From: Isurus oxyrinchus | Lineage: Eukaryota | Assembly (NCBI GenBank): GCA_026770705.1 | Contig: JANJGN010000035.1 | Coordinates: 7,378,001 to 7,442,000 of the forward strand | DNA: 64,000 bases | Reading direction: 5' to 3' | Shown here: positions 2,946 to 64,000 of the stretch, piece after piece | How the letters are laid out: every line of letters starts with the position of its first letter | Numbering within the stretch: the stretch's first letter is position 1 | Made by a program: the position numbers and the translations under genes | The notes under the pieces: generated by a model | Told to the model about the DNA's origin: nothing | The model's input: the letters and a program-made list of their open reading frames with translations, nothing else | Databases searched by the model: none

Positions 2946-5900
2946 GTAGGTTAAGTATTGCTGCACATGCATTAAGTGTCAATTGACCCATATTAGGGAC
3001 TGCTTAGAGAGAATATATCCCGCAGAGCCATAAGCTCTACTAAGATCTATACAGTGGCTTTAGAAGCTCCACTAGATGGCAAACATATGTCCAAGCATGA
3101 AGTCACATTTCAGATACAGGGAAAAACCCAAAGCATCTTGGAGTGAAAAGTTGTGGACGGAAATACTTGAAAAGTTTGCAGCATTCAGCGAAAGCATAGC
3201 ACCAGAGAGATACCTGTGGGTAGTTCAAAAGGAGTAACAGACTTCTAATATCATGTGAAGAAATTAACAGCAGGAAACAAAGCAAAATGTCGAAATCAAT
3301 ATACGGTCAAGCCGTTGAAATCCCTTTCTTTCTCTTACAAACAATGACACGTTTCTCTTAAAGCACATGTTGTTAGAAACACTGCAAACTTGGTTCGATT
3401 TATTAAAGATGTCCTCGGAGAATATACAATTCTGACCTTTTATTACTACTTTGATTCTTTGTCATACTTTTCGCGCCAGTGGCCATCACCAAATTCACTG
3501 AAACGTGATTCCTCATTTTCAACTTGTGCAAATTCACTTTCCTGAAGTGTCTTACAACGTTACCAAATTATCAGTCTTACAATTCGGTGACAATGAGTTA
3601 TTTTGATCGAATTCCCTTGGTGCAATCACATACTTCCCTCATTCTTAACAGAGCTCATAAGGTATAAGGGCCATCATTCGAATGTTACTTGACCCATAAT
3701 GACGACTGTTTATCTTGAATATATTCGCAGTATCCTAAATAAGCAAAGTGCCCAAGCGTGTATAGAATTAATGACATGGCATTTCTGCTCGGTGCAAAAC
3801 ATTTCATCTTTGTGATGGCTTTTGGCAGCATTCAGTGAATTAATTTCGTCTGGAATTGTCAACAAATAAATTACAAAAAGAAAAGAACAAAGTACGGCAT
3901 GCAAAGGCACAATATGATAGTTTCGAGGTTGTGCTACTTCCAGCTGTTTCAAGAAGAAATTTTATAGTGTTTGATTTGGATCAGCTCAGTTAATATTACA
4001 CAGTGATGGGTTCCCTTTGCATTTAGCTTATTAAGGAACCGTTGCTAGAATTAAAATAAAATGATTGTTAAAACACAGCTTAAGGAAAACAAATTTCCAA
4101 ACTGAATATTCGGCCACACAGTTGGCACATAGGTGCAAAACAATGAAATTCATCCGGAGAGTCGCTCATTGAGATTAATATTCCCTGTAGCCAGCAATAT
4201 TAGCATCTTTAGGACCGCATTAAAGACACGTGCAAATTATCTCTGCCAAACCTCTTGCAGTTAAGTCAATTCCATTGCTCACATTTAGGAAATCGTTTGG
4301 TTGACTCCGGAATTGGCAGGATATTTCCCATTGATGGTATGCATTAGTCCAAGAGTTAACCAATATTTCATGACTTCGAGGAAAGAAACAAATATATTTT
4401 ATGAAAAATTATATAAGGTAACATTGATAACACATGAATTATGTGCCATCAAACTAACAGCTATGAGATTCCATGAGGCACCTCGTACAAGTAATATATG
4501 CAAATTTCACCAAGTGTAAAAATAAACTGCAGAAAAAAGAAACCTGTCGAAATTATCATACATTCAAGGCCTAGTACTGTTTCTGTATTCTGTCAGAAAA
4601 TTACGTCTTTACAATTATACACAGACTGGCATAAACATTACCAGATGTGTTTTATAAAGACGGCTTCAAAAATAGTTCCTTTCACCTGAGTGAATTGGGC
4701 GTCCACGTAATATTATTGTGGACGTATGTAACTTGACTTTCTGAAGAAAAAAAAACATTATGAATATAACAAAGCATCATTCATAATTAATGCATTATTT
4801 TGTTTGAAGCATCTTCTTTGCATTTGCATCCCGATAGTCACAAACGCCTCCCTAACCCCATTTCATTCGGCATTTTATCCAGAGAATTTTAATTACGCTT
4901 GCTTTATTGTCGTATATGTCTTCTCCTGTGATATCTCTTTGTTGATAATTGCAATTAGCCTTTCTGAGAAACGTCATTCTTCGCTATCACGGTATCCTCT
5001 TTCAACTTTTGTTCAGTCAAATATAGTTGTATCTCTCATATTCCAGACTTTGGCGATGGTCTTGCCACTAGCATTAATAACCTTGTTTTCAGCCATTAAA
5101 CAACAACAACGAATAATATTACAGAAAATGTCACAAATATGCAGAAGATTTGGCGGAATTTCGGGGGAGAGAAACTAGCTCTGAAATATAGCTGTTGGTC
5201 TTAAACCAGAACAAAGCGTGTTGGAAATTAAAAATCGTCAAACATATGAAAAGTGATGGTTAGAGTCGGAGGAGTGGTAGAACTTTGGTTCGGTTGGTGG
5301 CCAGCCCACAAAGTCCTCAACCCGTGAATCAAATATAAAATTAGAGAGACGAAGAAAGATGAATGGTAACGAACGAATTATATAACACAATGTGGTAAAG
5401 TGTGAAAATAAAAGCTCGGCAATTAATAATTCACTATTCCCTGCATTGTTCTTCATGCCAATGCCTGTGGCGATCAGATTCCGCTTGCAAACCCGTTTTT
5501 TATGCTGTTGTTTCCTTTTACTCTCTTGGGTGGCTGTTGCAATGAATGTGAGGTGTAAAGCTTCAATATTATTCATTCTTTTAAGTCATAGTCAAAAGCA
5601 TTCCAACGAAGCGAATATGCTTAGCAGTTACATGCCTATATAATTCATTCGGGTCTCCGTTTATGTAACCTGGCACTCTCTTTACTTGTTTTATTTGTAT
5701 GTTTTCTAATACTTGCATCTGACAGAACTAATTTGAGCATGGATCTCAATTGTGTTATCAATTCGACATCGTTCATGTGTATCTGTATGTTCTGCTTAAA
5801 GTTATCGTTCAAAGCATGGATTTCCAAGTGGCTTTCTGCCCACTGAAACCACTACTCCAATCACAACACTCAGTGCATTCACATTCGTGGACAGCAACCC

Positions 5901-6459
5901 TAATTTAGGATTCACTGCTCCCCTCTATTATTACTGCGCCTAGTGCATTGAAGTTTCATTTTCTTTATCTTGTGCCTCTCGAAATGTTTTGTGCACTTAT
6001 TATTCCTCTATAAGGTTACCCGATGTTTCCAACGGAGTTGCCGAGTTACTTGGAAGATCCCTCAAATTGTTGATATCATTTATTATGCGTAGACACAAAT
6101 CATGAAGGCTCAATTTAAAAGTATACATTTTATTTAGATTGCATCCAGGTGTGATATTGTACCGCTAGGGTTGGATGTTCAGGAAAAAGTTGAGGTCCTT
6201 GAACTGATCTTTGTTGGATGTTTGATCATGTTTCTGAAGCGATGAAAAATGAAGTTTGACAAGGCAAAAATGACAAACTGAACTCCTGTTGGATAGAAGA
6301 ACATTATTTCTTAAGCGCGGGCATTCCAGCACGAGAAATTGCAATGAAATTAATATTAATAAAAATATAAAAGACAAATTTCTAGCCATAGAATAGAAAT
6401 AGAAATGATAATGCACAGAAATAGTCAACTTAGCTTATCGTGCCTGCGATGGCATGCAG

Positions 6460-6800
6460 TCCAATGCCAGATCCTGTCCTACCCTGCAGTTTGTGTCATT
6501 TGTATTCCATATCCAGACACCCATTAAATGAGCTGGGGATTTCTGCCTCTGATGTCCTTTCAGGCAGCGAGTTCCAGGCCACCACAATCCTCTGCGTGAC
6601 AAGAAAAACCGTAATCTTCCCTGCAATTTTGCTACAAATCACGTTAAATATAAACCCCCTACTCAGTCATCCGTGTGCTAAAGTAGAGGCACTTCCCAAG
6701 CACCCTTTCTTGGCTGGCCACAATTCGATATATCTCAATCAAATCTCGGGTCAACATCCTCTCTTCCAAGGACCACCTCATTTCGCACTGCCGAACAAAG
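6460..6800 (-). mobile_element. CR1 LINE 3' fragment
   Basis: 'WSLEERMLTRDLIEIYRIV' corresponds to the CR1 ORF2 C-terminal motif 'FSLERRRLRGDLIEVYKI'. Confidence 0.65.
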
Positions 6801-7144
6801 CTAACACTCTGAACAAACATTTCAAGGCTGTCATAAAATATCCTCATGTGGCTCAGTGACAGATTTTCCTAAATAATTAGCTCCCGTTTGTTACACTTAT
6901 TAAAATCTATGATGCAAATAAAAGGTGCACTCTGTTTTTGTTGTTGTTGAATATGAGTTCTTCTCATTTTTGCAATAGATGTTCATGGTACTGACACATG
7001 TTCTTTAAAAAAAAACTACAAACTCGAACTCTGAGGATTCCTATTATGCATCGTGACGAAGAAAATAAGAACGACAAAGCACCTGTTCCTATTATTGTTC
7101 ACCTTTGTTGACTAATTGTGGGATGGAAACTACGTTTATTACAG

Positions 7145-7316
7145 AGAATCACAAGCTTAGCTGAAAGCCAATCATATAAGGAAGCTTCCAAGCTCAGTTT
7201 GGATATTATACTGGGTAAGAACACTACAGACAAAAGAGTCATGTGGAACATGTTATTTGAACTGCAGCAAAACAAACCCAAACTGAAAACCACCTTGCTG
7301 GAGACAGAACGGACAG
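7145..7316 (+). CDS. NLR exon: second half of CARD-like domain (RITSLAESQSYKEASKLSLDIILGKNTTDKRVMWNMLFELQQNKPKLKTTLLETERTG)
   Basis: TTACAG acceptor, ACAG|GTAATT donor and an open frame (within ORF 7118-7369). The motif 'SKL.L..I..K....RVMW..F......PKL...L.E' is typical of chondrichthyan NLRs. Confidence 0.85.
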
Positions 7317-8399
7317 GTAATTTGACAGAATTAGTTTTTTCACCCAAAATTTGGTCGTGTATAAGATGACATTTGCCTTTCGGTGTTAGGAATTAGGGGC
7401 AAGGCAACGTTGCCTGTTCACGTTGCAATCGAATATTATTAACTGGCCTAAAGCAGGACCTCTGGCTCAGTTCAGCGTGATGGCGATTCATTCTTTAAAA
7501 AGGAAACATTACTTTAATTTCACAGAAGTTTTTTTTAAACTTTTCCCAAAGCTTCATGTGAATCATAGCGTCCACCATAAATAAGTAGGCTTTGAACTGT
7601 AGGGGACGCAACTCTTTCTACGCATGCAGCCATGCTGAATCTAAACGCCCGTCGCAAAAACTTTGAAACCATGCGACCTTCACTCTGCTGCTTCAGCGAA
7701 TGAAAAAATATTTTACTGACACTACGATTGCAATTCCAGATCTGACATTGACATATGCGAACACGTCCTTCAGCGGGGCTCTGGGTGTAGGTTTGGAGCC
7801 GGGGTGTTGGGAGGCAAGCTGCAATGTAGAATGAAAACACCAGCACACTCATAAATCTCGGCCTACGGTGACGAGAATATATCAGACATTAACACAGCAT
7901 CTGCCTCAAGCAGGTGCGACAGCAGCTCTTGCCAAAGATCCAAAAATAAAATTCAAGAAGTGAAGCTGACGCATTGGGAAGAATCAGAGGCATATGAATC
8001 CAGCCTGACATGCAAAGAAAGTTTGTCCTCAAAATTTCAACGGACCTGGTTTACCAATCGAGGGTCCGCATTCTTCAAAAGTCAGAGAGACAGGGTCATT
8101 TATAACTGTACTTCCCCCAAGATACCATGAAAGAGCTGGGTGACCTAATGGAGAACTACAGGAACCATATTAGACTTCGGATAAGCCATTGCTTGAGAAT
8201 TTGAAGATCAATGTAGCACTGTATTTTTACGCATTTTCCACTGAATGTATTTGTCGGGTCTCACGGTCTGCCGTTGTTTGGTGCATCAACCGTTGCCCAA
8301 GGGATGAAATTGGGGTCGTTATGGTAATCCAAAGCTTAGCCAGAGGGCGAAAGAGAATGGAATTATAACGGCAAGTAAAAAAAAGACCGTGGCAGGGAG

Positions 8400-9840
8400 G
8401 GACCGGTAGTCATGTTCCAAGAGTTCTGGAAATGTCCCAGAGGATCGAAAAAATGCCAGTGTAACATTCTTATTCAAAAAAGGAGGGATACACAGGCAAG
8501 TAACTATAGACCAGTTCGCTGAAATTCTGTCATTCCGAAAATGTTCATGTTCATTCTAAATGATACAATATCAAAACACTCAAAAATATATCATACAATC
8601 ATTCAGCGTCAGCTTTGCTTCATGAGGGAGAAACCTTAACTTCCACTTGTTATTAGAATTTTTTGGGGAGTTGTAAGGAGGGTAGATAAAGGAGAACTTG
8701 AAGAAGTGATATACTTGGATTTCCAAAAGTATTTCGATAAGGTAAGACACATAAGGCTACTTAATAAGACAAGAACTCATAGTCTTGTTACTATATTAGG
8801 ATGGACAGAGGATTGACTAACGAATTGAAGACAGAGAATTGGGATAAGCAGGGCACTTTCATAATGGCATATTTTGAATATGGAGTACCACAGGCATCAT
8901 TGCTTGGGACACAGTTACTTAAAATATATGTTAATGACTTGGCTGAGGGGAATGAATTCACGAAGATTCCTGTTGGGACAACATTAAGCGGGACAGCAAT
9001 GGTGAGGTTGACGCAGACATGTTAAGTGAGTGGTCAAAAATCTTGGCAGATAGAATACAACATTGCAATATGTGAGGTGCGCACTTTTGTTGGTAAATCA
9101 GAGGGTCTAGATATTATTTAAATGCAGAAATATTGTAGAAAGTTGCAGCACTCAGAGATTTGGTGTCCTGGGGCATCAATCACAAGAAAGTAGTGTAAAA
9201 TGTAGCAGGTAATATCGGAGGCAAACAGAATGTTGACCTTTATTTCAAAGCGAATGGAATATAGAAACAGAAAAGTATTGCTGCATGACACACGTCACTA
9301 GTTAGACCACCATAGATTCCTATGAACAGTTTTGGTCTGCTTATCTATAGAAAGATATGCTGGCATTGGAAGGATTCCAGTGCATTTTCATTAGTTTGCT
9401 TTCACGTATGGAAGGATTTTCTTATGAGAAACAATTAAGTCGGTTGGGTCTGTACTTAATAGAATTTAGAAGAATGAAAGGAGACATTATTGAAACATAA
9501 TGCATTAATAGGGAGTTGACAGGATAGGGGCTGCGAGGTGGTTTCCACATGTGTGTGAGCCTAACATCAAATGGCATATTCTGAAACTAAGGGTTTGGCT
9601 GTTTAAGGCAGAGATGAGGAGGAACTTCTACTCTTAGAGGGTAGTGAATCTGTATTTTTTTTTCTTTTTTTGCCACATAGAGATGTAAAGGTTCGGTCAA
9701 TAAAAATATCGAAGGCTGAGATAAACAGATCGAAAATCAGGAAGGGAATCAATGGTTATGGAGAAAAGGGAGAATAGTCGAATTTAGGATGACCAGATCA
9801 GCTATGATCTCACTGAATGACGGAGTGACTCGAATGTTCT
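8400..9840 (+). mobile_element. 5'-truncated CR1 LINE (RT and 3' end), degraded
   Basis: 'VPED.K.ASVT.LFKKGG...NYRPV', 'YLDFQKYFDKV', 'GVPQASLLGTQLLKIYVNDL' and a CR1-type 3' UTR. Many stops. Confidence 0.85.
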
Positions 9841-23745: not shown

Positions 23746-25493
23746 GCTTTAAGCAGAAACAATATATGCGGATAAAAATTAAGACACTGGGAACCCTTGT
23801 CATTGAAGGGACAGGATGCCATAGGGCATGCCTTCAGGCTGAGTGTTACACCAACATGTTGATTGTTGCTCCCCCACCCACTCTCTCCCCTCCCCCACCC
23901 CCGCCCCCGTGAGAGGCAAGAAGTGGAACATGAAGTGAACGACCACCATAGAATTCGTGCAGAAGTACTGAGCAAATAGATTAATAACCTTAAGACATTT
24001 GAACTCCATCAACTTTTTCCCAGCACCTGTTGTAAAACAAGACAGACTTGCACAACAGTGGTAGTTGGCGCTGCCGGGTTTTGGAAAAGTACCCTGATTC
24101 AGAAGATGATCCTGGATTGGGCCAGTTGTAAAATATACAAACAGTTTTCATTTGTTTTTCATTTCAACTTTTCATTCTTAAATTTACAAATTGCCGAACC
24201 ACTCTATCCCACCTGATTATGGATTCCTACCCTCAATTCGATTATCAGTTGGAGCATCAGTGGCAGGAATCCTCAAAACTATTGATCGTGTTTGATGATT
24301 TGGACCGATTCAAGAAAAAAAATAGATTTTGCTGATGCCAAGAGCAGCATAGATCAGCAGAACGATTACTTAGTTCTGGAGTGCTATTGTGAAATGTCAG
24401 AGATTGTATGCTGCCTCATACAAGGGAACATGTTCACAGGATGTTCAGTACTGATCACAACACGCCCGTGACAACTGGAGCTACTTGCAAAAGCAAAGAT
24501 CGATCAAACATTCGGGATTGAGGGATTTGAACCTGATCAATGTTAACAGTATTTTCTCCAATGTTATGGAGATGAGCAATTTACAAGACATATAACCGAA
24601 TACATTGAACAGAATGAGGTATTGTACACATTGTGCTATTACCCTCTGCACTGTTCAGTACTCTCTTCGTTACTACCGTCACATCTGACACAAGGGGTAC
24701 ATCGGAAATCTCTTTTCCACTTGACCAGCACACGGGTGTTATATGCTTACATCACCAGTCTTTTAGAGAGATGCTGCTGTGATCGGCTAATCACTTTTAA
24801 ACATATGTTTCAAATGGGTGAAATGGCCTACAAGGGGATTTGCAACCAAGAAAAAATATTTTTTCATAGCGAGCAGTTAAATCCCCAAGAATCTGGGCTT
24901 TTAAAAGTTATTCCTGCTTTTATGTTGGAGGTTCAAGACGAAGATTGGGGCTGTGTTGCCTACACATTCACTCATTCCATTTTGCAAGAATTTATTGCAG
25001 CAATTATTAAACTTCAAAGAGCAGCTGGAAATGAACTGATCAGCCTTATCAGTGAATGGAACAAGTGCACTGACGACAGATTTATGATATGTTCACGTTT
25101 CCTTGTTGGTCTCTCATCACGAAATTTAATTGATCAGCTTGGAAGCTTTGGCGTAATTAACATTGAAACAGCTTCACCAGTACCGGATTGGCTCAACGAA
25201 AATGTGAAAACACTTCTTCCGAACATGGAAGACGGGAAAATCCAAAGTAGGCTCTTAAAGATGTTCTACTATCTGTTTGAATTTGGAAAAACTGAACTGA
25301 TGGCAGCCGCATTAAAACCGTTGAAGACAATAGCATTCAGACAATTTCATCTCAAATACTCTGACTGTGTGGTTCTGTCAACTGTGCTGATTTATGTGGA
25401 GCGGATTGAAGAGCTGAATTTCGCTGTTTGTTGTATCGAAGCTGTTGTAATCCATCAGATGGAGCTTTTGATACCCAAAGGCAAAGTTCTAAG
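23746..25493 (+). pseudogene. Large NACHT exon (pre-NACHT, NBD, HD1, WH, HD2, first LRR), disrupted
   Basis: CATAG acceptor and AG|GTAACT donor. Motifs: Walker A VVVGAAGFWKST (24067-24090), 'QKMILDWA', Walker B LLIVFDDLDR (about 24279-24308), sensor 'SVLITTRP' and WH 'YTFTHSILQEFIAA'. Stops at 23977, 24469 and 24544; frameshifts at about 23871-23908, about 24188 and 24315-24322. Confidence 0.93.
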
Positions 25494-25929
25494 GTAACTC
25501 ACCAAAATTATTGAATAACATTATAAACAATAAAAGGAGAATGTGATCTCCTAATAGTGAAACCTAAACGTCAACACATCTTACATTGAACGCACAGATA
25601 CGTGCATTCTTTTCTTACAATCTGCTGTGTGAAAGGGAAAGGTTACTATAAGAAAATTGAAGAGACTGTTTGAGTTGTACGTGAGCGCACAGTATCTGTG
25701 TGTTTTTTTCAAAACTAAATGAGATTGAATGTTCGCTACATCATATCTGAATCTGATGCACTTTATAAATAATCTCTGTAGCTGCAGCAGTAAGTCAGAT
25801 ATATTACTTTTTATGGCAATGGCAGATCCATATTTAAGAAAAAGGAAGATGGTTCAAAATGTCGCAAGCCGGTTATCTCAGGTACACAATATTGCCGTAG
25901 GAGCTGCTGAGAATAAAGTCCTTAGGATA

Positions 25930-38100: not shown

Positions 38101-39078
38101 CATCGTATACAGAAGTGGCATGATGGCGTCGGGAATGGTGGCAAAACTCATCACGCCCGATAATGCATCTCGATATGTGCGGAACACTCCTGCTTTGAAA
38201 GTCTATTGTTCTGTCCGTTTACTGTTTCTTTTCCACAGATGGTGCCAGACATCTGCTTATTACGAACATTTTCAGTTTTTTTTTTTAAATCTCATACATG
38301 TTCATTTGTGTGAACGAATATGGGGATATTTCAATTTGAATATGTTAACATATTTTTAAAATTCTGTATACTCTGAACTAATCCAGCAGTTGATGCATTA
38401 TGCATGGCTACTTGATCCATCTTCACCTATGGACACTGTATCTTCCGAACGCGGGCAATGGGCTCCTTCAACTGCTAAATTGTTGCTTCTTAATTTTTAA
38501 CAATCTCCCAACATATGCCATTTGTTCTGGTAACCATAATACATTTGTCTCCAAGGATCATTCATAGCATCCATGCTCTATTTTTCTTACGACCTAAGAG
38601 AAGATCTGTCTCTCCATTTCGTCTATCTCCCTCATTGCAACCAATGATCTGCTCATTATCAAACTTGTTAGCTCTGCCGTTATCTGTGAGTTTGCCAACA
38701 GTGACTTACTGCTACTCGCAATATTGTGAAAACATTCCCAAACTTCCGCCATTATTTCAACAATCCTTTAATAGTATGCTTACCGTCTTGCACATGAGGT
38801 ATTTTGCTCAAAGGTGCGCTATTTCTTTTTGTTCAACATTTTTCCTCAGCAACACCACCCTTTTCTTTCTGTACCCAGTTACAATTTCAGAGATCTTTGG
38901 AAGCACGTAAAGCAATTGTATATCGCTCTAAAATTTAACAAAATTCTGGTTCTTTCCCTTCCTTAAATTTCTGAAATAATTTCTGCACATTTTTCTCAAC
39001 AACGCTTTGGAATTCAGGTCAGCAGAATTGCCCCGTTGATAGTCGCTTCACTAAAAGACCTCAATAAAACGTTAAAAG

Positions 39079-39586
39079 AAAAACAGAATTACCTGGAAAA
39101 ACTCAGCAGGTCTGGCAGCATCGGCGGAGAAGAAAAGAGTTGACATTTCGAGTCCTCATGACCCTTCGACAGAACTTGATTTCGAGTCCAAGAAAGTTTT
39201 GAAATATAAGCTGGTTTAAGGTGTGTGTGTGGGGGGCGGAGAGACAGAGAGAGAGAGAGGTGGTTGTGTAGACAAACAAGCAGTGACAGAAGCAGATCAT
39301 CAAAAGATGTCAGCGACAATGGTACAAAAGAACACATAGGTGTTAAAGTTAAAGTTGGTGATATTATCTAAACGAATGTGCTAATTAAGAATGGACGGTA
39401 GGGCACTCAATGTACAGCTCTAGTGGGGGTGGGGAGAGGATAAAAGATTTTAAAATGTTAAAAAAATAGGTGGGAAAAGAAAAATCTATATAATTTATAG
39501 GGAAAAAAAAGGAAAAAGGGGGAAACAGAAAGGAGGTGGGGATGGGGGAGGTAGCTCACGACCTAAAGTTGTTGAACTCAATATTC
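39079..39586 (-). repeat. PLE pseudo-LTR, left arm of inverted repeat
   Basis: Reverse complement of 41417-41926 with scattered substitutions. The ORF track shows near-identical peptides at 39089-39337(-) and 41666-41914(+). Confidence 0.95.
39138..39176 (-). ncRNA. Minimal type I hammerhead ribozyme motif (variant core; stem III palindrome mutated)
   Basis: Reverse complement reads AGTT-CTGTCGA-A-GGGTC-ATGAG-GACTC-GAAA-T-GTC-AACT. Confidence 0.7.
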
Positions 39587-41416
39587 AGACCAGAAGGCTG
39601 TAAGGTGCCTAATCGGAAGATGAGGTGTTGTTCCTCCAGTTTGCGTTGGGCTTCACTGGAACAATGCAGCAAGCCAAGGACAGACATGTGGGCAAGAGAG
39701 CAGGGTGGACTGTTAAAATGGCAAGCGACAGGGAGGTTTGGGTCATTCTTGCGGACAGACCACAGGTGTTCTGCAAAGCGGTCGCCCAGTTTACGTTTGG
39801 TCTCTCCAATGTAGCGGAGACCACATTGGGAGCAACGAATGCAGTAGACTAAGTTGGGGGAAATGCAAGTGAAATGCTGCTTCACTTGAAAGGAGTGTTT
39901 GGGCCCTTAGACGGTGAGGAGAGAGGAAGTGAAGGGGCAGGTGTTACATCTTTTGCGTGGGCATGGGGTGGTGCCATAGGAGGGGGTTGAGGAGTAGGGG
40001 GTGATGGAGGAGTGGACCAGGGTGTCACGGAGGGAGCGATCCGTACGGAATGCCGATAAGGGGGGTGAAGGGAAGATGTGTTTGGTGGTGGCATCATGCT
40101 GGAGTTGACGGAAATCGCGGAGGATGATCCTTTGAATACGGAGGCTTTTGGGGTGATAAGTAAGGACAAGGGGGACCCTATCATGTTTCTGGGAGGGAGG
40201 AGAAGGCGTGAGGGCAGAGGCGTGGGAGATGGGCCGGACACGGTTGAGGGCCCTGTCAACGACCGTGGGTGGAAAACCAAGGTTAAGGAAGAAGGAGGAC
40301 ATGTCAGAGGAACCGTTTTTGAAGGTAGCATCATCGGAACAGATGCGACGAAGGCGACGGAACTGGGAGAATGGGATGGAGTCCTTACAGGAAGCGGGGT
40401 GTGAGGAGCTGTAGTCGAGGTAGCTGTGGGAGTCGGTGGCTTTGTAAATGATATTGGTGGACAGTCTATCACCAGAGATTGAGACAGAGAGGTCAAAGAA
40501 GGGAAGGGAAGTGTTAGAGATGGACCACGTGAAAATGATGGAGGGGTGGAGATTGGAAGCAAAATTAATAAATTTTTCCAAGTCCCGACGAGAGCATGAA
40601 GCAGCACCGAAGTTATCATCGATGTACCGGAGAAAAAGTTTTGGAAGGGGGCCGGAGTAGGACTGCAACAAGGAATGTCCCACATACGCCATAAAGAGAC
40701 AGGCAAGTTGGGGCCCATGCTGGTACCCATAGCCACACCTTTTATTTGGAGAATGTGAGAGGAGTTGAAGGAGAAATTGTTCAACGTGAGAACAAGTTCA
40801 GCCAGACGGAGGAGAGTAGTGGTGGATGGGGATTGTTCGGGCCTCTGTTCGAGGAAGAAGCTAAGGGCCCTCAGAACATCCTGGTGGGGGATGGAGGTGT
40901 AGAGAGATTGGACGTCCATGGTGAAGAGGAAGCGGTTGGAGCCAGGGAACTGGAAATTGTTGATGTGACGTAAGGTGTCAGAGGAATCACGGATGTAGGT
41001 GGGAAGGGACTGGACAAGGGGAGAGAGAAGGTAGTCAAGATAACGAGAGATGAGTTCTGTGGGGCAGGAGCAAGCTGAGACGATCGGTCTACCGGGGCAG
41101 TTCTGTTTGTGGATTTTGGGTAGGAGATAGAAGCGGGCCGTCCGAGGTTGTGCGACTATCAGGTTGGAAGCTGTGGGAGGGAGATCCCCAGAGGAGATGA
41201 GGTCAGTGACAGTCCTAGAAACAATGGCTTGATGTTCAGTGGTGGGGTCATGGTCCAAGCAGAGGTAGGAGGAAGTGTCTGCGACTTGACGCTCAGCCTC
41301 CGCGAGGTAGAGGTCAGTGCGCCAGACAACAACAGCACCACGCTTGTCAGCGGGTTTGATGACAATGTCAGGGTTGGACCTGAGAGAATGGAGTGCAGTA
41401 AGTTCAGAGAGAGACA
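39556..41416 (-). pseudogene. PLE RT/GIY-YIG ORF with two visible lesions
   Basis: 1-nt deletion at about 40705 (compared with the sister copy at about 62170) and TAA at 39909-39907. Otherwise continuous across ORFs 41258, 40692 and 39885. Confidence 0.9.
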
Positions 41417-41964
41417 GAATATTGAGTTCATCAACTTTAGGTCGTGAGCTCCCTCCCCCATCCCCACCCCCTTTCTGTTTCCCCCTTTTTCCTTTTTTTT
41501 CCCTATAAATTATATAGATTTTTCTTTTCCCACCTATTTTTTAAACATTTTAAAATCTTTTATGCTCCCCCCACCCCCACTAGAGCTGTACCTTGAGTGC
41601 CCTACCATCCATTCTTAATGAGCATATTCGTTTAGATAATATCACCAACTTTAACTTTAACACCTATGTGTTCTTTTGTACCATTGTCACTGACATCTTT
41701 TGATGATCTGCTTCTATCACTGCTTGTTTGTCTACACAACCACCTCTCTCTCTCTCTATCTCTCCGCCCCCCACACACACACCTTAAACCAGCTTATATT
41801 TCAACTCTTTCTTGGACTCGAAATCAAGTTCTTTCGAAGGGTCATGAGGACTCGAAACGTCAACTCTTTTCATCTCCGCCGATGCTGCCAGACCTGCTGA
41901 GTTTTTCCAGGTAATTCTGTTTTTGTTTTGGATTTCCAGCATCCGCAGTTTTTTTTGTTTTTAT
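41417..41964 (+). repeat. PLE pseudo-LTR, inverted right arm
   Basis: Starts GAATATTGAGTTCATCAACTTTAGGTCGTGA (end of the GIY-YIG ORF) in the opposite orientation to the RT it abuts. Confidence 0.95.
41827..41865 (+). ncRNA. Minimal type I hammerhead ribozyme motif (G5 mutated)
   Basis: AGTT-CTTTCGA-A-GGGTC-ATGAG-GACTC-GAAA-C-GTC-AACT. Confidence 0.7.
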
Positions 41965-42639
41965 CTCAATAAAACGTTAATGCCTTGACCAGACACACAA
42001 ACTGACGTTAAACTCTCTAACTTGACTTTGGCTATCGCAGATTTGTGGCATTATTCCTAAATGATGCAACACACATGCAAAATCATTCATCACAGAGAAT
42101 GGTCAATAATTGAATAATAATTGAGAAGATCAAATGCCGGAATCATTATCAACAGTTACTTCACAACCTGTTTAGGCAATCTAAGATTATTTATGACCAA
42201 ATCAAATGTCATTGCTTCTGCGCCTGCTGACGTCAGGCATGCTGACGTCGGGCATCGTGATGTCAAGCAGCGTTCCTGAAGAGATAATACGGCAGGGAGA
42301 TGAGCCTAGAATTCGGCAACCTCCAGTGTAATGTTACTAATTTGCGATGCTTAGGGCACCATTTTACGGCCCATGTCAGGGTACCTGAAGGCACTGGTTT
42401 GTTTTTGAGAACGCAAGGGTAAGAAAAGTGGGAGGATATCCTAACACCTACACATCTGCTCCCAGCTGACTATTATGATGTGGTGGGTAGAAAAGGCGTC
42501 ATCCGTACGCCTACTCATAGGCCGATTGAGTCGCTAATAGAGTCCACTCGAGTGCATGATTATCCCACTGAGGCAATAGCACAAACGATTGGGGGAAAGT
42601 AGAAGGCTGTTGGGCAATGCAGAACTTTAGCAGCTCAAC

Positions 42640-47365: not shown

Positions 47366-47404
47366 TGTTCTGTCGAAGGGTCATGAGGACTCGAAACGTC
47401 AACA
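47366..47404 (+). ncRNA. Minimal type I hammerhead ribozyme motif, most intact copy, in a solo pLTR fragment (47366 to about 47464)
   Basis: TGTT-CTGTCGA-A-GGGTC-ATGAG-GACTC-GAAA-C-GTC-AACA. Stems I and II pair, the ACGT palindrome is intact and there is a GUC cleavage triplet. Confidence 0.75.
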
Positions 47405-49689
47405 CATTTCTTCTCCGCCGATGCTGCCAGACGTGCTGAGTATTTCCAGGTAATTCTGTTTTTATATCATTTCAGTTCTTCTTTGAGCAGATAATGTTGT
47501 CCAACCATTATCGGGAGATTTCGCCTGCCACCTGTCTTACATCTTAATATCAGAACTATAAAATTTGTTGTTCATTGCATCGTGCCCACTACATCAACAT
47601 TCACACAAATTGTAAAGTAGCCCATGCATACAAGCAAAACCACAAACAAATCTGGACATAATTTAGGATTTAGAGGGAAGTAACAAAATATTTCCACACA
47701 GAGTCAGAGAAGTAGGATGTGACAAAAAAAAAAAAATGCCTCAACGTTGCTCCTATTGATGCTGAAATGTATTTCCATCGCTGGTTGGTCGGCCATAACA
47801 TGTCAGCGCATCACCAATAAAAATAAGCTTAACAGGCAAGGTAAATATATAACTCTCTCCACCCTTCCTCCTCCCCCCCAAAAAAAAACAAAAATAAATG
47901 AAACACTGGTCATTTCACACCTTGCCTCTCCAAATCCACCCAAGTCCAAATCACATTTAGCGTTGGAATGACATGATCCCGCATGGCATCATTTCCAAGA
48001 ACTCTCAGGAAAGCTGTTATCATTAAGTGACAAGAAACCCACGTCAGCGACACACCATCTGCAATATTGAACAACTTTCTCCAGCACAATTGTGCCGTGA
48101 CTGCATGGTGCACCTCGACGTACATTTGGAAACATGTAAGATGCCGAAATGTTTCGGGAAAGTGCAACTTATATATGGAGTCCAAAGTGGTTCCGTGCGT
48201 ATCAGGTTTGAGGATTTATCATGAATCTACAGGGTCTGGGTGAGATCCACAGACAATAAGTTCATGAAGACAAAAAGCGATTATATCGTATCATTATCAT
48301 GATAATTGCCTTCGAACCCCATCTACAAGCGTTATGAAACAGAATATGCCACTGGTGCAAGTGTCCTTTTTTTAACTGCAGGAGGACGATAAGAGGCAAT
48401 AATGGAATCTAAATTTTGTTTTTTTGGTGAGCTGAATACAAGGCCGAAATTGTGGAGAGAAGAAAATTGGAAATACTTAAGATGCCAGAATTCTGCTAAT
48501 ATTGAGATCTCGGGAGGTTCAGGTCTGTAGAAGCTCACAGGAATACGAAGGGGTTAGGTTCTACAGGGAGTGGAAACAGGTAATATTCCAAAATTTAGAC
48601 CTGGCTTAAAACAAAATCCAACTTCTGTCAGTGGGCAGAGGGGTGATGGGGTTATTCGGAGTTGGTGAGTCTATTAAAAAGGGCTGCAATTTGCCATGAC
48701 TTCACTTTTATGAAGTTTACCAGCAGGTAGGCCTGCCTGGCGTAGATCAGACACGTGTCGATTTTGTTTTTAATGTCATAGACGAGAATGTTCGTGACAA
48801 GCAAGTTGAGGCAAAGGGGCAATCAACAATGTTGTTTCACTTCAAAATAAGAGGGCTCAATGGTGATGCTGATATGAAATAAGAAGCTCATCCTATGAAC
48901 AATTCTAATAGCAAGGGGTTCACCAGAAGATCATTCTTACAAACAGGTTTGCAATCGATTGGAGGAAAAAAATAAAGCTTATAATGGCATTATAATTCAA
49001 AGACATCTACCTTGTCAATCTTCATTTAGTGGAATCATGCAAGCAAGATTAACTACACAGCGTGCGTTGGTGTTAAAGGAGGTAGTATTTGAAATCATGT
49101 TGGATCAGGAAGAATCATATTGTATTTTTTTTTGGCTACTTCACGGTATATCAGAATTTACTCAGGTTTTTTTATGTCTACACAGTGGATTCAGATCGTG
49201 CCACAAGTGTCTGGGATATCGACGTTTAAAATGACTAGACCGATTATGCAATATATATCAATGTCTTAGTAGATTTTGAGAGAAACCACTTCTTAAGACT
49301 TTCACCAGGTTTTTGTGTTATTTCGCACTGTGTTAGAATTCTTGCAGTTGCTTACCTGGTGGAACAACCTGACAAGTTACAGGGTGATATGCTTAAGTTT
49401 CCTCTTGTGTTAGGAGTTTGCCAGGTTTGTAAAAGTATGAACGATCCCTCACAACTAGTTCATCTCCAACTTAACAGTCTTGCTTTTTTGGCACTGTTTG
49501 AATACGTTTGTTATGTGGGTCGTTATCTAATGCCTTTTAATCATCCGCATATACAACACTACAAGATTGCATACAATAACCTTTACAATTTACTATACCC
49601 TTTTGCTGAATCAAAAGCGATCGGCACCACACCAATGAAAAGGAAACGCCAGGGCATAATACATTTTTAATGAAATTTCACTGTAGCAA

Positions 49690-60568: not shown

Positions 60569-61830
60569 CAGATGTCAGCTTCCACGTATACACTGAGGAA
60601 AATCGTTAACACTCCCCTGCCTTTTTCAGACGTCATGACCAACGAATGCGTTCGTGTGCCTCAACTTCTTTTGGATTGGTCCTTCTTTAAAATTAGAAAG
60701 GTTTTGCAGTAGTTTGCCATTGCCTTCTTCAATGTGGCTGACCAGACATCACAACCTTTCAAAGATGCCATCAGGCATATTTGAAGGAGTACATAATGAT
60801 TATCCATTTGCTTGGCTACCTTATGATCGCATCTTCCATGGCTATCAAATCCTGAAGTGGAATTTTAAAGCACAACTTCCGCCCCAAAATAGGGACGCTA
60901 CTGAAATGCAATAAGTCCTCTGCAAGACACATTGCACTTCAACATTGGTCTATTTATCCTTTCACTCGTCCTGTACTCTCAGACACCTGTAACGTCAGGT
61001 TGCTTTTAGCATTTAACCTGCTGTCAATACGCCATTCACAAAGTTTTATTCCTTGTTTTTTGAGCAATTATATACACCAAAGTCAAATAAGCCTTTTTTT
61101 TCTTAACAAAGCTGCGCTCATTTTTTCAGGCTGTAATAGGCAAGGTAGATGGGGTAAATGCAACGCAATTAGTCTGAATTGACTGTCTACAATACAATAA
61201 GGTAAAACGTCGGGAATTTGTAAAGAATAAAGTTGTGAAATTTGGATTGTATACCAGTTTTGGCAGTTGGTCAACGGCTACAGTATTTGATCGTGCATAT
61301 TGGTAATGGCATGATCCTGTTTCAGTCTGTGGGAGTTTCCAACCTCAGACCATATCAAAGACCTCTATATAGCCTATGGTCGTATCAAAATTTGAAAATT
61401 GTGGCGCATTAGACAAAAGCTTTGCAGAAATCCACGGATGTTGCAAGTGCGTTTGTTTGTGTGCACTACAAATAAGCATTACCGCTGACAATTTCTCGTG
61501 CGTGCTTGTGCAGGTGTTTTTTTTTTTGAATGGAGTTACATTGGACGTTTAATCCGACTGGATTTCTGCACTTAACGTCTGCGCTATATATTTTATGCTG
61601 AGCGGACTTTGAAATTCTGGAATTTCCTTTCAATATGATGTCGTTGGTTTAATGTCTCCATGCTCCCATGGGAGAGGGAGCAAGCCATTACAAAATATGG
61701 TTATCTTGGGAAACGTGTCTCAAAATTGGAAAAAAAAAAATAGGATATGGTAAAGACCATCTGAGCTGAAAAAGGCGACGTCAGTAAAGTGATTAGTTCC
61801 CTTGTTCTGAAAGAGAACAGGTTATAAATA

Positions 61831-62740
61831 CTCGTTATCTTGACTCCCTTCTCTCTCCCCTTGTCCAGTCCCTTCCCACCTACATACGTGATTCCTCTGA
61901 CACCTTACGTCACATCAACAATTTCCAGTTCCCTGGCTCCAACTGCTTCCTCTTCACCATGGACGTCCAATTCCTCTACACCTCCATCCCCCACCAGGAT
62001 GGTCTGAGGGCCCTTAGCTTCTTCCTCGAACAGAGGCCCGAACAATCCCCATCCACCACTACTCTCCTCCGTCTGGCTGAACTTGTTCTCACGTTGAACA
62101 ATTTCTCCTTCAATTCCTCTCACTTTCTCCAAATAAAATGTGTGGCTATGGGTACCCGCATGGGCTCCAGCTATGCCTGTCTCTTTATGGGGTATGTGGA
62201 ACATTCCTTGTTGCAGTCCTACTCCGGCCCCCTTCCACAACTTTTTCTCCGGTACATCGATGATTACTTCGGTGCTGCTTCATGCTCTCGTCAGGACTTG
62301 GAAAAATTTATTAATTTTGCTTCCAATCTCCACCCCTCCATCATTTTCACGTGGTCCATCTCTGACACTTCCCTTCCCTTCCTTGACCTCTCTGTCTCAA
62401 TCTCTGGTGATAGACTGTCCACCAATATCCATTACAAACCCACCGACTCCCACAGCTACCTCGACTACAGTTCCTCACACCCCGCTTCCTGTAAGGACTC
62501 CATCCCATTCTTCCAGTTCCTTCGCCTTCGTCGCATCTGTTCCGATGATGCTACCTTCAAAAACGGTTCCTCTGACATGTCCTCCTTCTTCCTTAACCGA
62601 TGTTTTCCACCCACGATCGTTGACAGGACCCTCAACCGTGTCCGGCCCATCTCCCGTGCATCCACACTCACGCCTTCTCCTCCCTCCCAGAAACATGATA
62701 GGTTCCCCCTTGTCCTCACTTATCAGCCCACCAGCCTCCA
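61831..62740 (+). mobile_element. Internal RT fragment of the same young PLE family (open ORF 61959-62771)
   Basis: Near-identical to the reverse complement of about 40140-41048, including MDVQFLYTSIPH and RYIDDYFG. No pLTR or GIY-YIG. Confidence 0.92.
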
Positions 62741-62754
62741 CATGCAGAAGAGTA

Positions 62755-63378
62755 AATTCAGGGAAGTGTGAGTGAAATATTGCTTCACTTGAAAGGAATC
62801 TTTGGGCATTTGGACAATGAGGACGTTGGAAGTAAAGGGGGAAATGTTGCACCTTCTGCGGTTGCAAGGGAAGTATCCATCGGAACGTGCTTTGGAGTAG
62901 GGGCTGATGGAGCAGTGGACCAGCGAGTCCCGCGGGCAACATTCCCTGCAGCATGCTGCCAAGGGGCTTTAACAGAAGATGTGTTTTGTATTGGCATCAT
63001 GCTGGATTTGGCAGTAATGGCAAAGTGTGAAGCTTTGAATGCGGAGGCTGGTGGGGTGATATATGTTGACAAGGGGGACCATATCATTGTTCTGGTAGCG
63101 AGAGGAAGGTGTGAGGGCTGATGCACGGGAGACAGGCTGGGCACGGATGAGGGCCCTGTAATCGACAGTGGGTTGAAAATCTCAGTTAAGGAAGAAGGAA
63201 GACATGTCGGAGGAATTGCTTTTGGAAGTGGCATAAATGGAACAGATGTGATGGAAGCGATGGAATAGAGGGAACTGGATGAAGTGCTTACAGGAAGCTG
63301 GTTGTGAGGAGCTGTAGTCAAGGTAGCTGTGGGAGCTGCTAGGTTTGTAGTGAATATTGGTGGGCAATCTATCAACAA
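62755..63378 (-). mobile_element. Older, diverged PLE fragment (RT C-terminus and Cys linker)
   Basis: 'TNIHYKPSSSHSYLDYSSSQPASCKHFIQF' and 'FPCNRRRCNISPFTS...FQVKQYFT'. Confidence 0.85.
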
Positions 63379-64000
63379 AAAATATGCTGACCTATCTCAA
63401 ACTTGTTGTCCTTGCACCTTATGCTCCTCTAAATAAAACGCATTGCATTGCACTATTCATTCAATGAGTAGTGAACCATTTCTCCCTTCAACATCTTTAT
63501 TGATTGACATGACATAGCTCCAAGTTTCTCTGCTCCTGTATTTAGAAATATACTATTCATTGAGATTCCCATTTAGCATGCTTTCTTCCAAATGATCTAC
63601 TTAACAACTGTATGCATTATTATTTATCTGTCGCTTGACATCTCTTGAACCAGCCGAGTTGTCTCAATTTGAAAGAGGTAATTAATGTTCTTCACAATCT
63701 AAAATGCTTCCAAGTTGTGGCCCATTGACCTCAGTCTCAGTTTTGAATATGTGTTTGTATTTTCTACTGAGACCTGATAGTCTTTGGGAAAACCAAAATT
63801 AATTGCCCAGACTTATTTTTTTTTTTCTCAGGCGAAGGTGAGCTGTAGATAAATTTTCATATTCTAACCCTGACTTCGGCAATCCCACTATATGCCGTCA
63901 TTATGACCCAGCCAATGGTCTTTGATAGCTGTTCAAACCCTAGAAGGAGACTTGAAACAACCTGAATTTCTTTCAGCTCTAGCTTCTGGCACGCAGGAAA

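Follow-up and report, generated by a model that had tools for sequence, protein, structure and literature searches.

The short insertion and its hammerhead motif

The window, i.e. the whole stretch of 64,000 nucleotides that was analysed, contains at 47366–47464 a short solo insertion, which the original prediction described as a minimal hammerhead ribozyme followed by the 3' end of a PLE pseudo-LTR (pLTR). Its sequence, its coordinates and the hammerhead reading at 47366–47404 are correct, and the origin from a PLE could be confirmed as the insert at 47367–47463 shows 94–95% identity to both pLTR arms. The assignment as a minimal type I hammerhead also holds, with its stems, the extra base, the palindromic positions 15.2–16.2 and the lack of a stem III. 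The homology to the pLTR does begin at stem I as proposed, but at 47367 (GTT) and not at 47366, and the first T of 'TGTT' is therefore located outside the homology. This T is probably flank or junction filler, judging from the family sequence. The individual parts, numbered according to the hammerhead consensus, are as follows:

47367–47463 (+): solo copy of the pLTR 3' end, 97 nt, with the untailed 'short' 3' end
47366–47369 (+): stem I, 5' strand, TGTT; the family base at 47366 is A
47370–47376 (+): core C3-U4-G5-U6-C7-G8-A9 (CTGTCGA), with U6 at 47373 in place of the canonical A6
47377 (+): extra A between positions 9 and 10.1, as usual in the PLE minimal hammerheads described in PMC4209133
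47378–47392 (+): stem II, 5 bp including one G·U, with a 5-nt loop; predicted in all three folds
47393–47400 (+): G12-A13-A14-A15.1, the palindromic ACGU that replaces stem III, and C17 (GAAA-C-GTC)
after 47400 (+): predicted cut
47401–47404 (+): stem I, 3' strand, AACA; T>A at 47404 is a private mutation

The 97-nt copy carries four private substitutions including the one at 47404, and the longest word common to its two flanks is 5 nt, so that no clear target-site duplication is visible. As for the flagged copy, it is a dead stub of the ordinary kind.

Stem I reads TGTT/AACA in this copy and AGTT/AACT in the pLTR arms, and this double change had been interpreted as covariation. The interpretation failed in four genome-wide counts and in an inspection of all copies with the double change. 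As exact 39-mers, AGTT/AACT occurs 52,044 times, TGTT/AACT 1,189 times, AGTT/AACA 183 times and TGTT/AACA 10 times, the flagged copy being one of these 10. This is a small excess over the 4.2 copies expected under independence (odds ratio 2.4, p = 0.012), and 99% of the TGTT copies as well as 95% of the AACA copies are mismatched. Four of the 10 copies break off right after AAC, which makes their final A part of the flank, and all flanks of the 10 are unrelated, with none in common. In the 30 TGTT/AACT loci that were inspected the T is found at the 5' junction. What looked like a double change is made up of one junction base and one point mutation.

The motif had been seen in two copies; it is indeed repeated, but the window contains three of them, at 39142–39172 (−), 41831–41861 (+) and 47370–47400 (+), with 0 matches in 100 shuffles. 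All three possess T6, and private changes are present in the copy at 41831 (G5>T) and in the copy at 39172 (C15.2>T). No Rfam hammerhead match was obtained in the window at E ≤ 1. Two of the three hammerheads belong to a single truncated PLE insertion, composed of a minus-strand body with its pLTR and an inverted tailed arm:

39060–39075: 16-bp target-site duplication, left copy, flanking the truncated PLE insertion
39076–39586 (−): 3' pLTR of the insertion, with the hammerhead at 39142–39172 and an untailed end
39556–41416 (−): RT/GIY-YIG reading frame, 5'-truncated and frameshifted, of the same protein family as the intact L135 frame (see below)
41417–41964 (+): inverted pLTR arm with tail and the hammerhead at 41831–41861
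41965–41980: 16-bp target-site duplication, right copy

A second fragment of the same PLE body is located in inverted orientation at 61797–63396 (94–96% identity to 40128–41047), where it is joined head-to-head to an older PLE fragment of about 79% identity.

The parent element and the fixed U6

When any base is allowed at positions 6 and 7, the motif has 78,939 exact matches in the genome (4.98 Gb, roughly 5 Gb), and only 138 of them possess A6; U6 is therefore the state of the family and not a result of decay. The proposed fixation of A6→U is thus valid family-wide, and a hand count of the first 100 of the 78,939 matches gave 98 T6 and 2 C6. A sister motif pattern is present in 4,482 exact copies, and position 6 in the first 100 matches listed is occupied by A in 41, U in 53, C in 4 and G in 2 cases, again counted by hand. 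Compared to the core consensus CUGANGA...GAAA...UH every position agrees except position 6, and the further features of PLE minimal hammerheads are all present (stem I, stem II with G10.1-C11.1, an extra base after A9, the palindromic 15.2–16.2 and no stem III).

An intact member of the family was found at locus L135:

L135:6883–9660 (−): 917-aa PLE frame without interruption, flanked on both sides by U6 pLTRs, with RT and GIY-YIG

The frame matches RVT_1 (E 1.3e-5) and GIY-YIG (E 8.7e-4), both under the curated Pfam cut-off, and the second U6 hammerhead follows 3,324 nt beyond the first. As in endonuclease-bearing PLEs, L135 has a single ORF with an RT and then a C-terminal GIY-YIG, and the pLTRs are direct or inverted, with an optional tail of 30–40 nt and frequent 5' truncation. 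Two L135 frames have a C-x4-C-x2-C linker, which falls under the CX2-5CxxC linker between RT and endonuclease given for the Neptune clade in PMC8557442. Because L135 holds the 917-aa frame, the CX4CxxC linker and two U6 hammerheads, the U6 family is autonomous and Neptune-like, and the open state of the frame, read from its sequence, is a sign of recent PLE activity.

A tree built from 72 of 119 grouped copies (134 columns; unrooted and poorly resolved) shows a chain from A6 over older U6 to young U6 subfamilies. That A6 is ancestral rests on the canonical consensus and on more distant copies, of which three have A6 and one has G6. In contigs assembled from four public runs of four organisms A at position 6 never reached 10%, which is a weak hint that U6 is common to relatives.

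Where the copies begin

For an analysis of the 5' ends we collected 194 young copies (101 + 93) from contig C1 by exact anchors 3' of the hammerhead, comprising nearly all of the first 100 matches of one anchor, about 90 of 100 of the other and some bystanders, and 94 older copies from the same contig by an exact 3' anchor. As the anchors are located on the 3' side, the choice of copies asked nothing of the hammerhead motif; where both arms of an insertion are included in these samples, they do not count as independent. Relative to C3, 75 of the 194 young copies start at −12 to +10, 15 at +11 or later, 24 at −60 to −13, and the remaining 80 extend beyond that. The mode of this hotspot is −3, the first base of stem I (p = 7e-24 against a uniform distribution), and the 5' ends of the short copies are thus non-random as suggested. 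The same is seen for non-inverted young copies, with 27 at the hotspot, 2 at +11 or later and 12 at −60 to −13 (p = 1.6e-9, mode −3/−2). At +30 to +34, where the cut is predicted, only one of the 194 copies starts. The hotspot is weaker in the older copies (18 of 94; non-inverted 10 versus 9 and 9, p = 0.06), and their cut site is nearly empty, with one doubtful case. 5' ends defined by cleavage were therefore rejected for the young U6 copies and for the older subfamilies. A cleaved template should give rise to a particular inverted junction, which occurs 42 times, and one hotspot junction geometry alone gives 900 strand hits, most of them palindromic, so that the number of loci is about half of this.

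The hotspot spans 23 nt, and part of it, the peak at −10, follows a microhomology of 5 nt that belongs to the youngest subfamily. Members of this subfamily (e.g. window 39176–39195 (−)) carry GGACTCGAA a second time, immediately before stem I, resulting in a quasi-palindrome that is used at many inversion junctions. Starts at the hotspot also occur in elements running on into the ORF (L070, L122); here the 5' part of the ORF directly abuts a stub that begins at the hotspot, the arrangement that template jumps would produce. Splicing as a cause of the hotspot was rejected after inspection, as the hotspot copies have no upstream exon in common. In older subfamilies a pyrimidine tract and an AG are found just before the core, and the 5' strand of stem I reads YYAGTTC, which we take to resemble the initiator consensus. 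This initiator-like word is poorer in the youngest subfamily.

Constraint on the U6 hammerhead

In order to compare subfamilies, 126 copies were picked by flank anchors and clustered on their flanks, leaving out 7–20 copies in small clusters depending on the cut. Clusters with a U6 majority differ from each other at N7, at two bases of loop II, at H17 (U/C) and at 10.2 (A-U/G·U). These five changes, on which the whole test rests, affect 4 of 7 free positions versus 1 of 31 constrained ones (p = 0.002). With the most stringent cut a further difference appears at 15.2 (a CpG) in one small cluster, giving 2 of 31 (p = 0.006). Of the flank columns 19 of 36 differ between U6 clusters, with gaps counted per column. 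An earlier test with copies picked by the hammerhead pattern, which is partly circular, led to the same result. Since the changes are confined to free or pair-keeping positions, the fold of the U6 hammerhead is still under selection, which lends indirect support to the proposed continued function but is no proof of cutting. In folding of the monomer stem II alone is reliable, and the dimer showed no double hammerhead, a result that is uninformative where cores are tertiary.

By analogy with other hammerheads the U6 variant would be a slow, dimer- or protein-dependent ribozyme, a reading that we prefer narrowly over no cutting at all. The natural A6C hammerhead of phage Bcep176 is described as having low but detectable activity (kobs <0.1 per minute, PMC3088659), and a comprehensive mutational scan found little activity for mutants of the CUGA turn (PMC9901934). 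This second result also fits the opposite reading, to which we give considerable but not the greater credence: with U6 the ribozyme would have lost its catalytic activity, its fold would be retained for binding a protein or as an internal promoter, and the family would prosper without any cleavage. Such a family would explain the absence of cleaved-template ends, and it would have parallels in the anole element, where hammerhead mutants were without effect on insertion in vitro (PMC11167929), and in the Naiads, which are reported as very prolific without a hammerhead (PMC8557442). The activity of the A6C hammerhead speaks against it, as do the changes that arose after U6, since they sit where a working hammerhead is free, including U/C at H17. 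Moreover, ends at the cut are missing from the A6 subfamilies too, apart from one doubtful case among 94 older copies, and the absence therefore does not single out U6.

Origin of the short copies

We consider it likely that the 97-bp insert is a short end copy of the autonomous PLE, made from uncleaved RNA and reaching from an internal RT start to the 5' edge of the hammerhead. For the anole element it has been described that RT starts internally at two adjacent sites, which define the tail, that both strands are primed, and that the hammerhead cuts only with protein, is dispensable for insertion and leaves no RNA ends at the cut (PMC11167929). By analogy, target-primed reverse transcription would begin here at two internal sites, about 95 and 130 nt after C3. 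Use of the start near the RNA 5' end would copy 100–140 nt until run-off near stem I and yield solo stubs, and priming of both strands would yield hairpin pairs. The hotspot would then correspond to the transcription start and thus the RNA 5' end, and the fold of the U6 hammerhead would be selected, yet cutting would not make the template ends. An internal initiator-type promoter has been reported for Drosophila Penelope (PMC2377424).

Two types of 3' ends, about 35 nt apart, were found among the copies, and for 81 of the 194 arms an inverted copy lies at most 0.5 kb away. Of the short head-to-head pairs, 83 of 90 have a tail on exactly one arm, in agreement with the two RT starts and the priming of both strands described in PMC11167929. 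Solo hotspot copies make up 27 of the 194 sampled arms. An exact flank word of at least 8 nt is shared in 17 of 37 solo hotspot copies versus 17 of 1,332 mismatched pairs, so judging from their flanks these copies often carry target-site duplications. Hairpin insertions of 200–300 bp, consisting of two head-to-head stubs, are very common on contig C1 (e.g. L081, L101 and L127).

The main rival to this run-off model is an ordinary truncation hotspot that has nothing to do with an RNA 5' end, at which enzyme fall-off, cDNA fold-back or microhomology joining takes place at the structured or protein-bound hammerhead within a longer RNA. The width of the hotspot, the short filler at the junctions, the GAACT/AGTTC quasi-palindrome at the commonest inverted junctions and the fact that inversion junctions account for 48 of the 75 hotspot ends all point in this direction. 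We nevertheless regard it as unlikely, as non-inverted copies have the same hotspot, ORF-bearing copies start there too, and a stall would be expected first inside or 3' of stem II, where few ends are located (the 15 of 194 at +11 or later).

The original prediction had also raised the possibility of a non-autonomous retrozyme-like unit, spreading via self-cleaved or circular RNA. Short copies are very common and carry target-site duplications, but this reading is largely refuted and very improbable: only 5 of the 194 arms have an anchor match on the same strand in the 0.5 kb upstream, and none of these is an array, copies end away from the cut, intact U6 elements exist, the short copies share subfamily bases with the long ones and differ among themselves at both ends, the lone motif has no partner for a dimer, and there is no TGTT/AACA lineage. 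Animal non-LTR retrozymes as described in PMC7229834 and 10.64898/2026.07.22.740005 resemble the 97-nt unit in being short, non-coding, hammerhead-bearing and related to PLE pLTRs; they are, however, tandem, with mostly canonical type I hammerheads and circular RNA, whereas copies of the 97-nt unit are scattered, singly or head-to-head, and their hammerhead is minimal.

Comparison with known systems

Much of what is described here is shared with the minimal hammerheads of metazoan PLEs as presented by Cervera and De la Pena (2014, PMC4209133), namely the lack of stem III, the palindromic 15.2/16.2, the extra base between 9 and 10.1, G10.1-C11.1, a stem I of 4 bp, the location in the pLTR and the predominance of single or opposite-strand copies from truncated elements. 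The extra A, which had been put forward as a peculiarity of this family, is described there as conserved and is not new. In contrast, the core variant named in that work is U3-A8 and not U6, and the roughly 79,000 exact copies found here are well above the 4,000–9,000 given for vertebrates.

With Poseidon PAc from Anolis carolinensis (Frangieh et al. 2024, PMC11167929) the family shares two 3' end types 30–40 nt apart, head-to-head arms and no sign of cleaved templates. It differs in its ORF start (171 nt after C3 versus at stem II in PAc), in the Neptune-type CX4CxxC linker and in U6, and the available part of that paper makes no mention of a 5'-end hotspot at stem I for PAc. A natural substitution of position 6 is shared with the Bcep176 hammerhead (Perreault et al. 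2011, PMC3088659), which is described as a single phage case with C6, while here U6 is the fixed state of an animal retroelement present in many copies, whose hammerhead fold is minimal and of the dimer type. No report of an A6U hammerhead or of a 5'-end hotspot at stem I was found in those parts of the hammerhead and PLE literature that the search covered; variants of position 6 may be listed in Lunse et al. 2017 (PMC5785218) and Hammann et al. 2012.

PLE hammerheads cut poorly in vitro. In the one reconstituted PLE system the hammerhead was found to be dispensable for insertion (PMC11167929). In the family described here a core substitution that is expected to slow cutting is fixed in the most successful family of the genome with the rest of the fold under constraint, and the copy ends place the start of the template at stem I and not at the cut. 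A more speculative and, taken as a whole, rather improbable scenario is that in a vertebrate Penelope lineage transcription begins with the first base of the hammerhead and that A6U has turned the ribozyme down, all other core bases being kept, so that capped, uncleaved RNA would persist as template; 'strong-stop' cDNAs running off from the 5' start site would then seed tens of thousands of insertions of 100–140 bp and their hairpins. Since the genome contains sister subfamilies with A6 and with U6, a natural comparison of what Penelope hammerheads are for is readily at hand.

The 3' part of the pLTR also contains a donor-like CAG/GTAATT at window 47446–47455 (+). Together with the pyrimidine tract and AG before the core in older subfamilies it would bound an exon of about 82 nt, and such an exon could be taken up in host introns. 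Elsewhere in the window, at 24547–25497 (+), there is an open frame of 316 aa with a match to NLRC4_HD2 (E 1.9e-5, below the cut-off) and a GT donor-like site just before its stop, which by its sequence is likely an exon of a host NLR-type gene.
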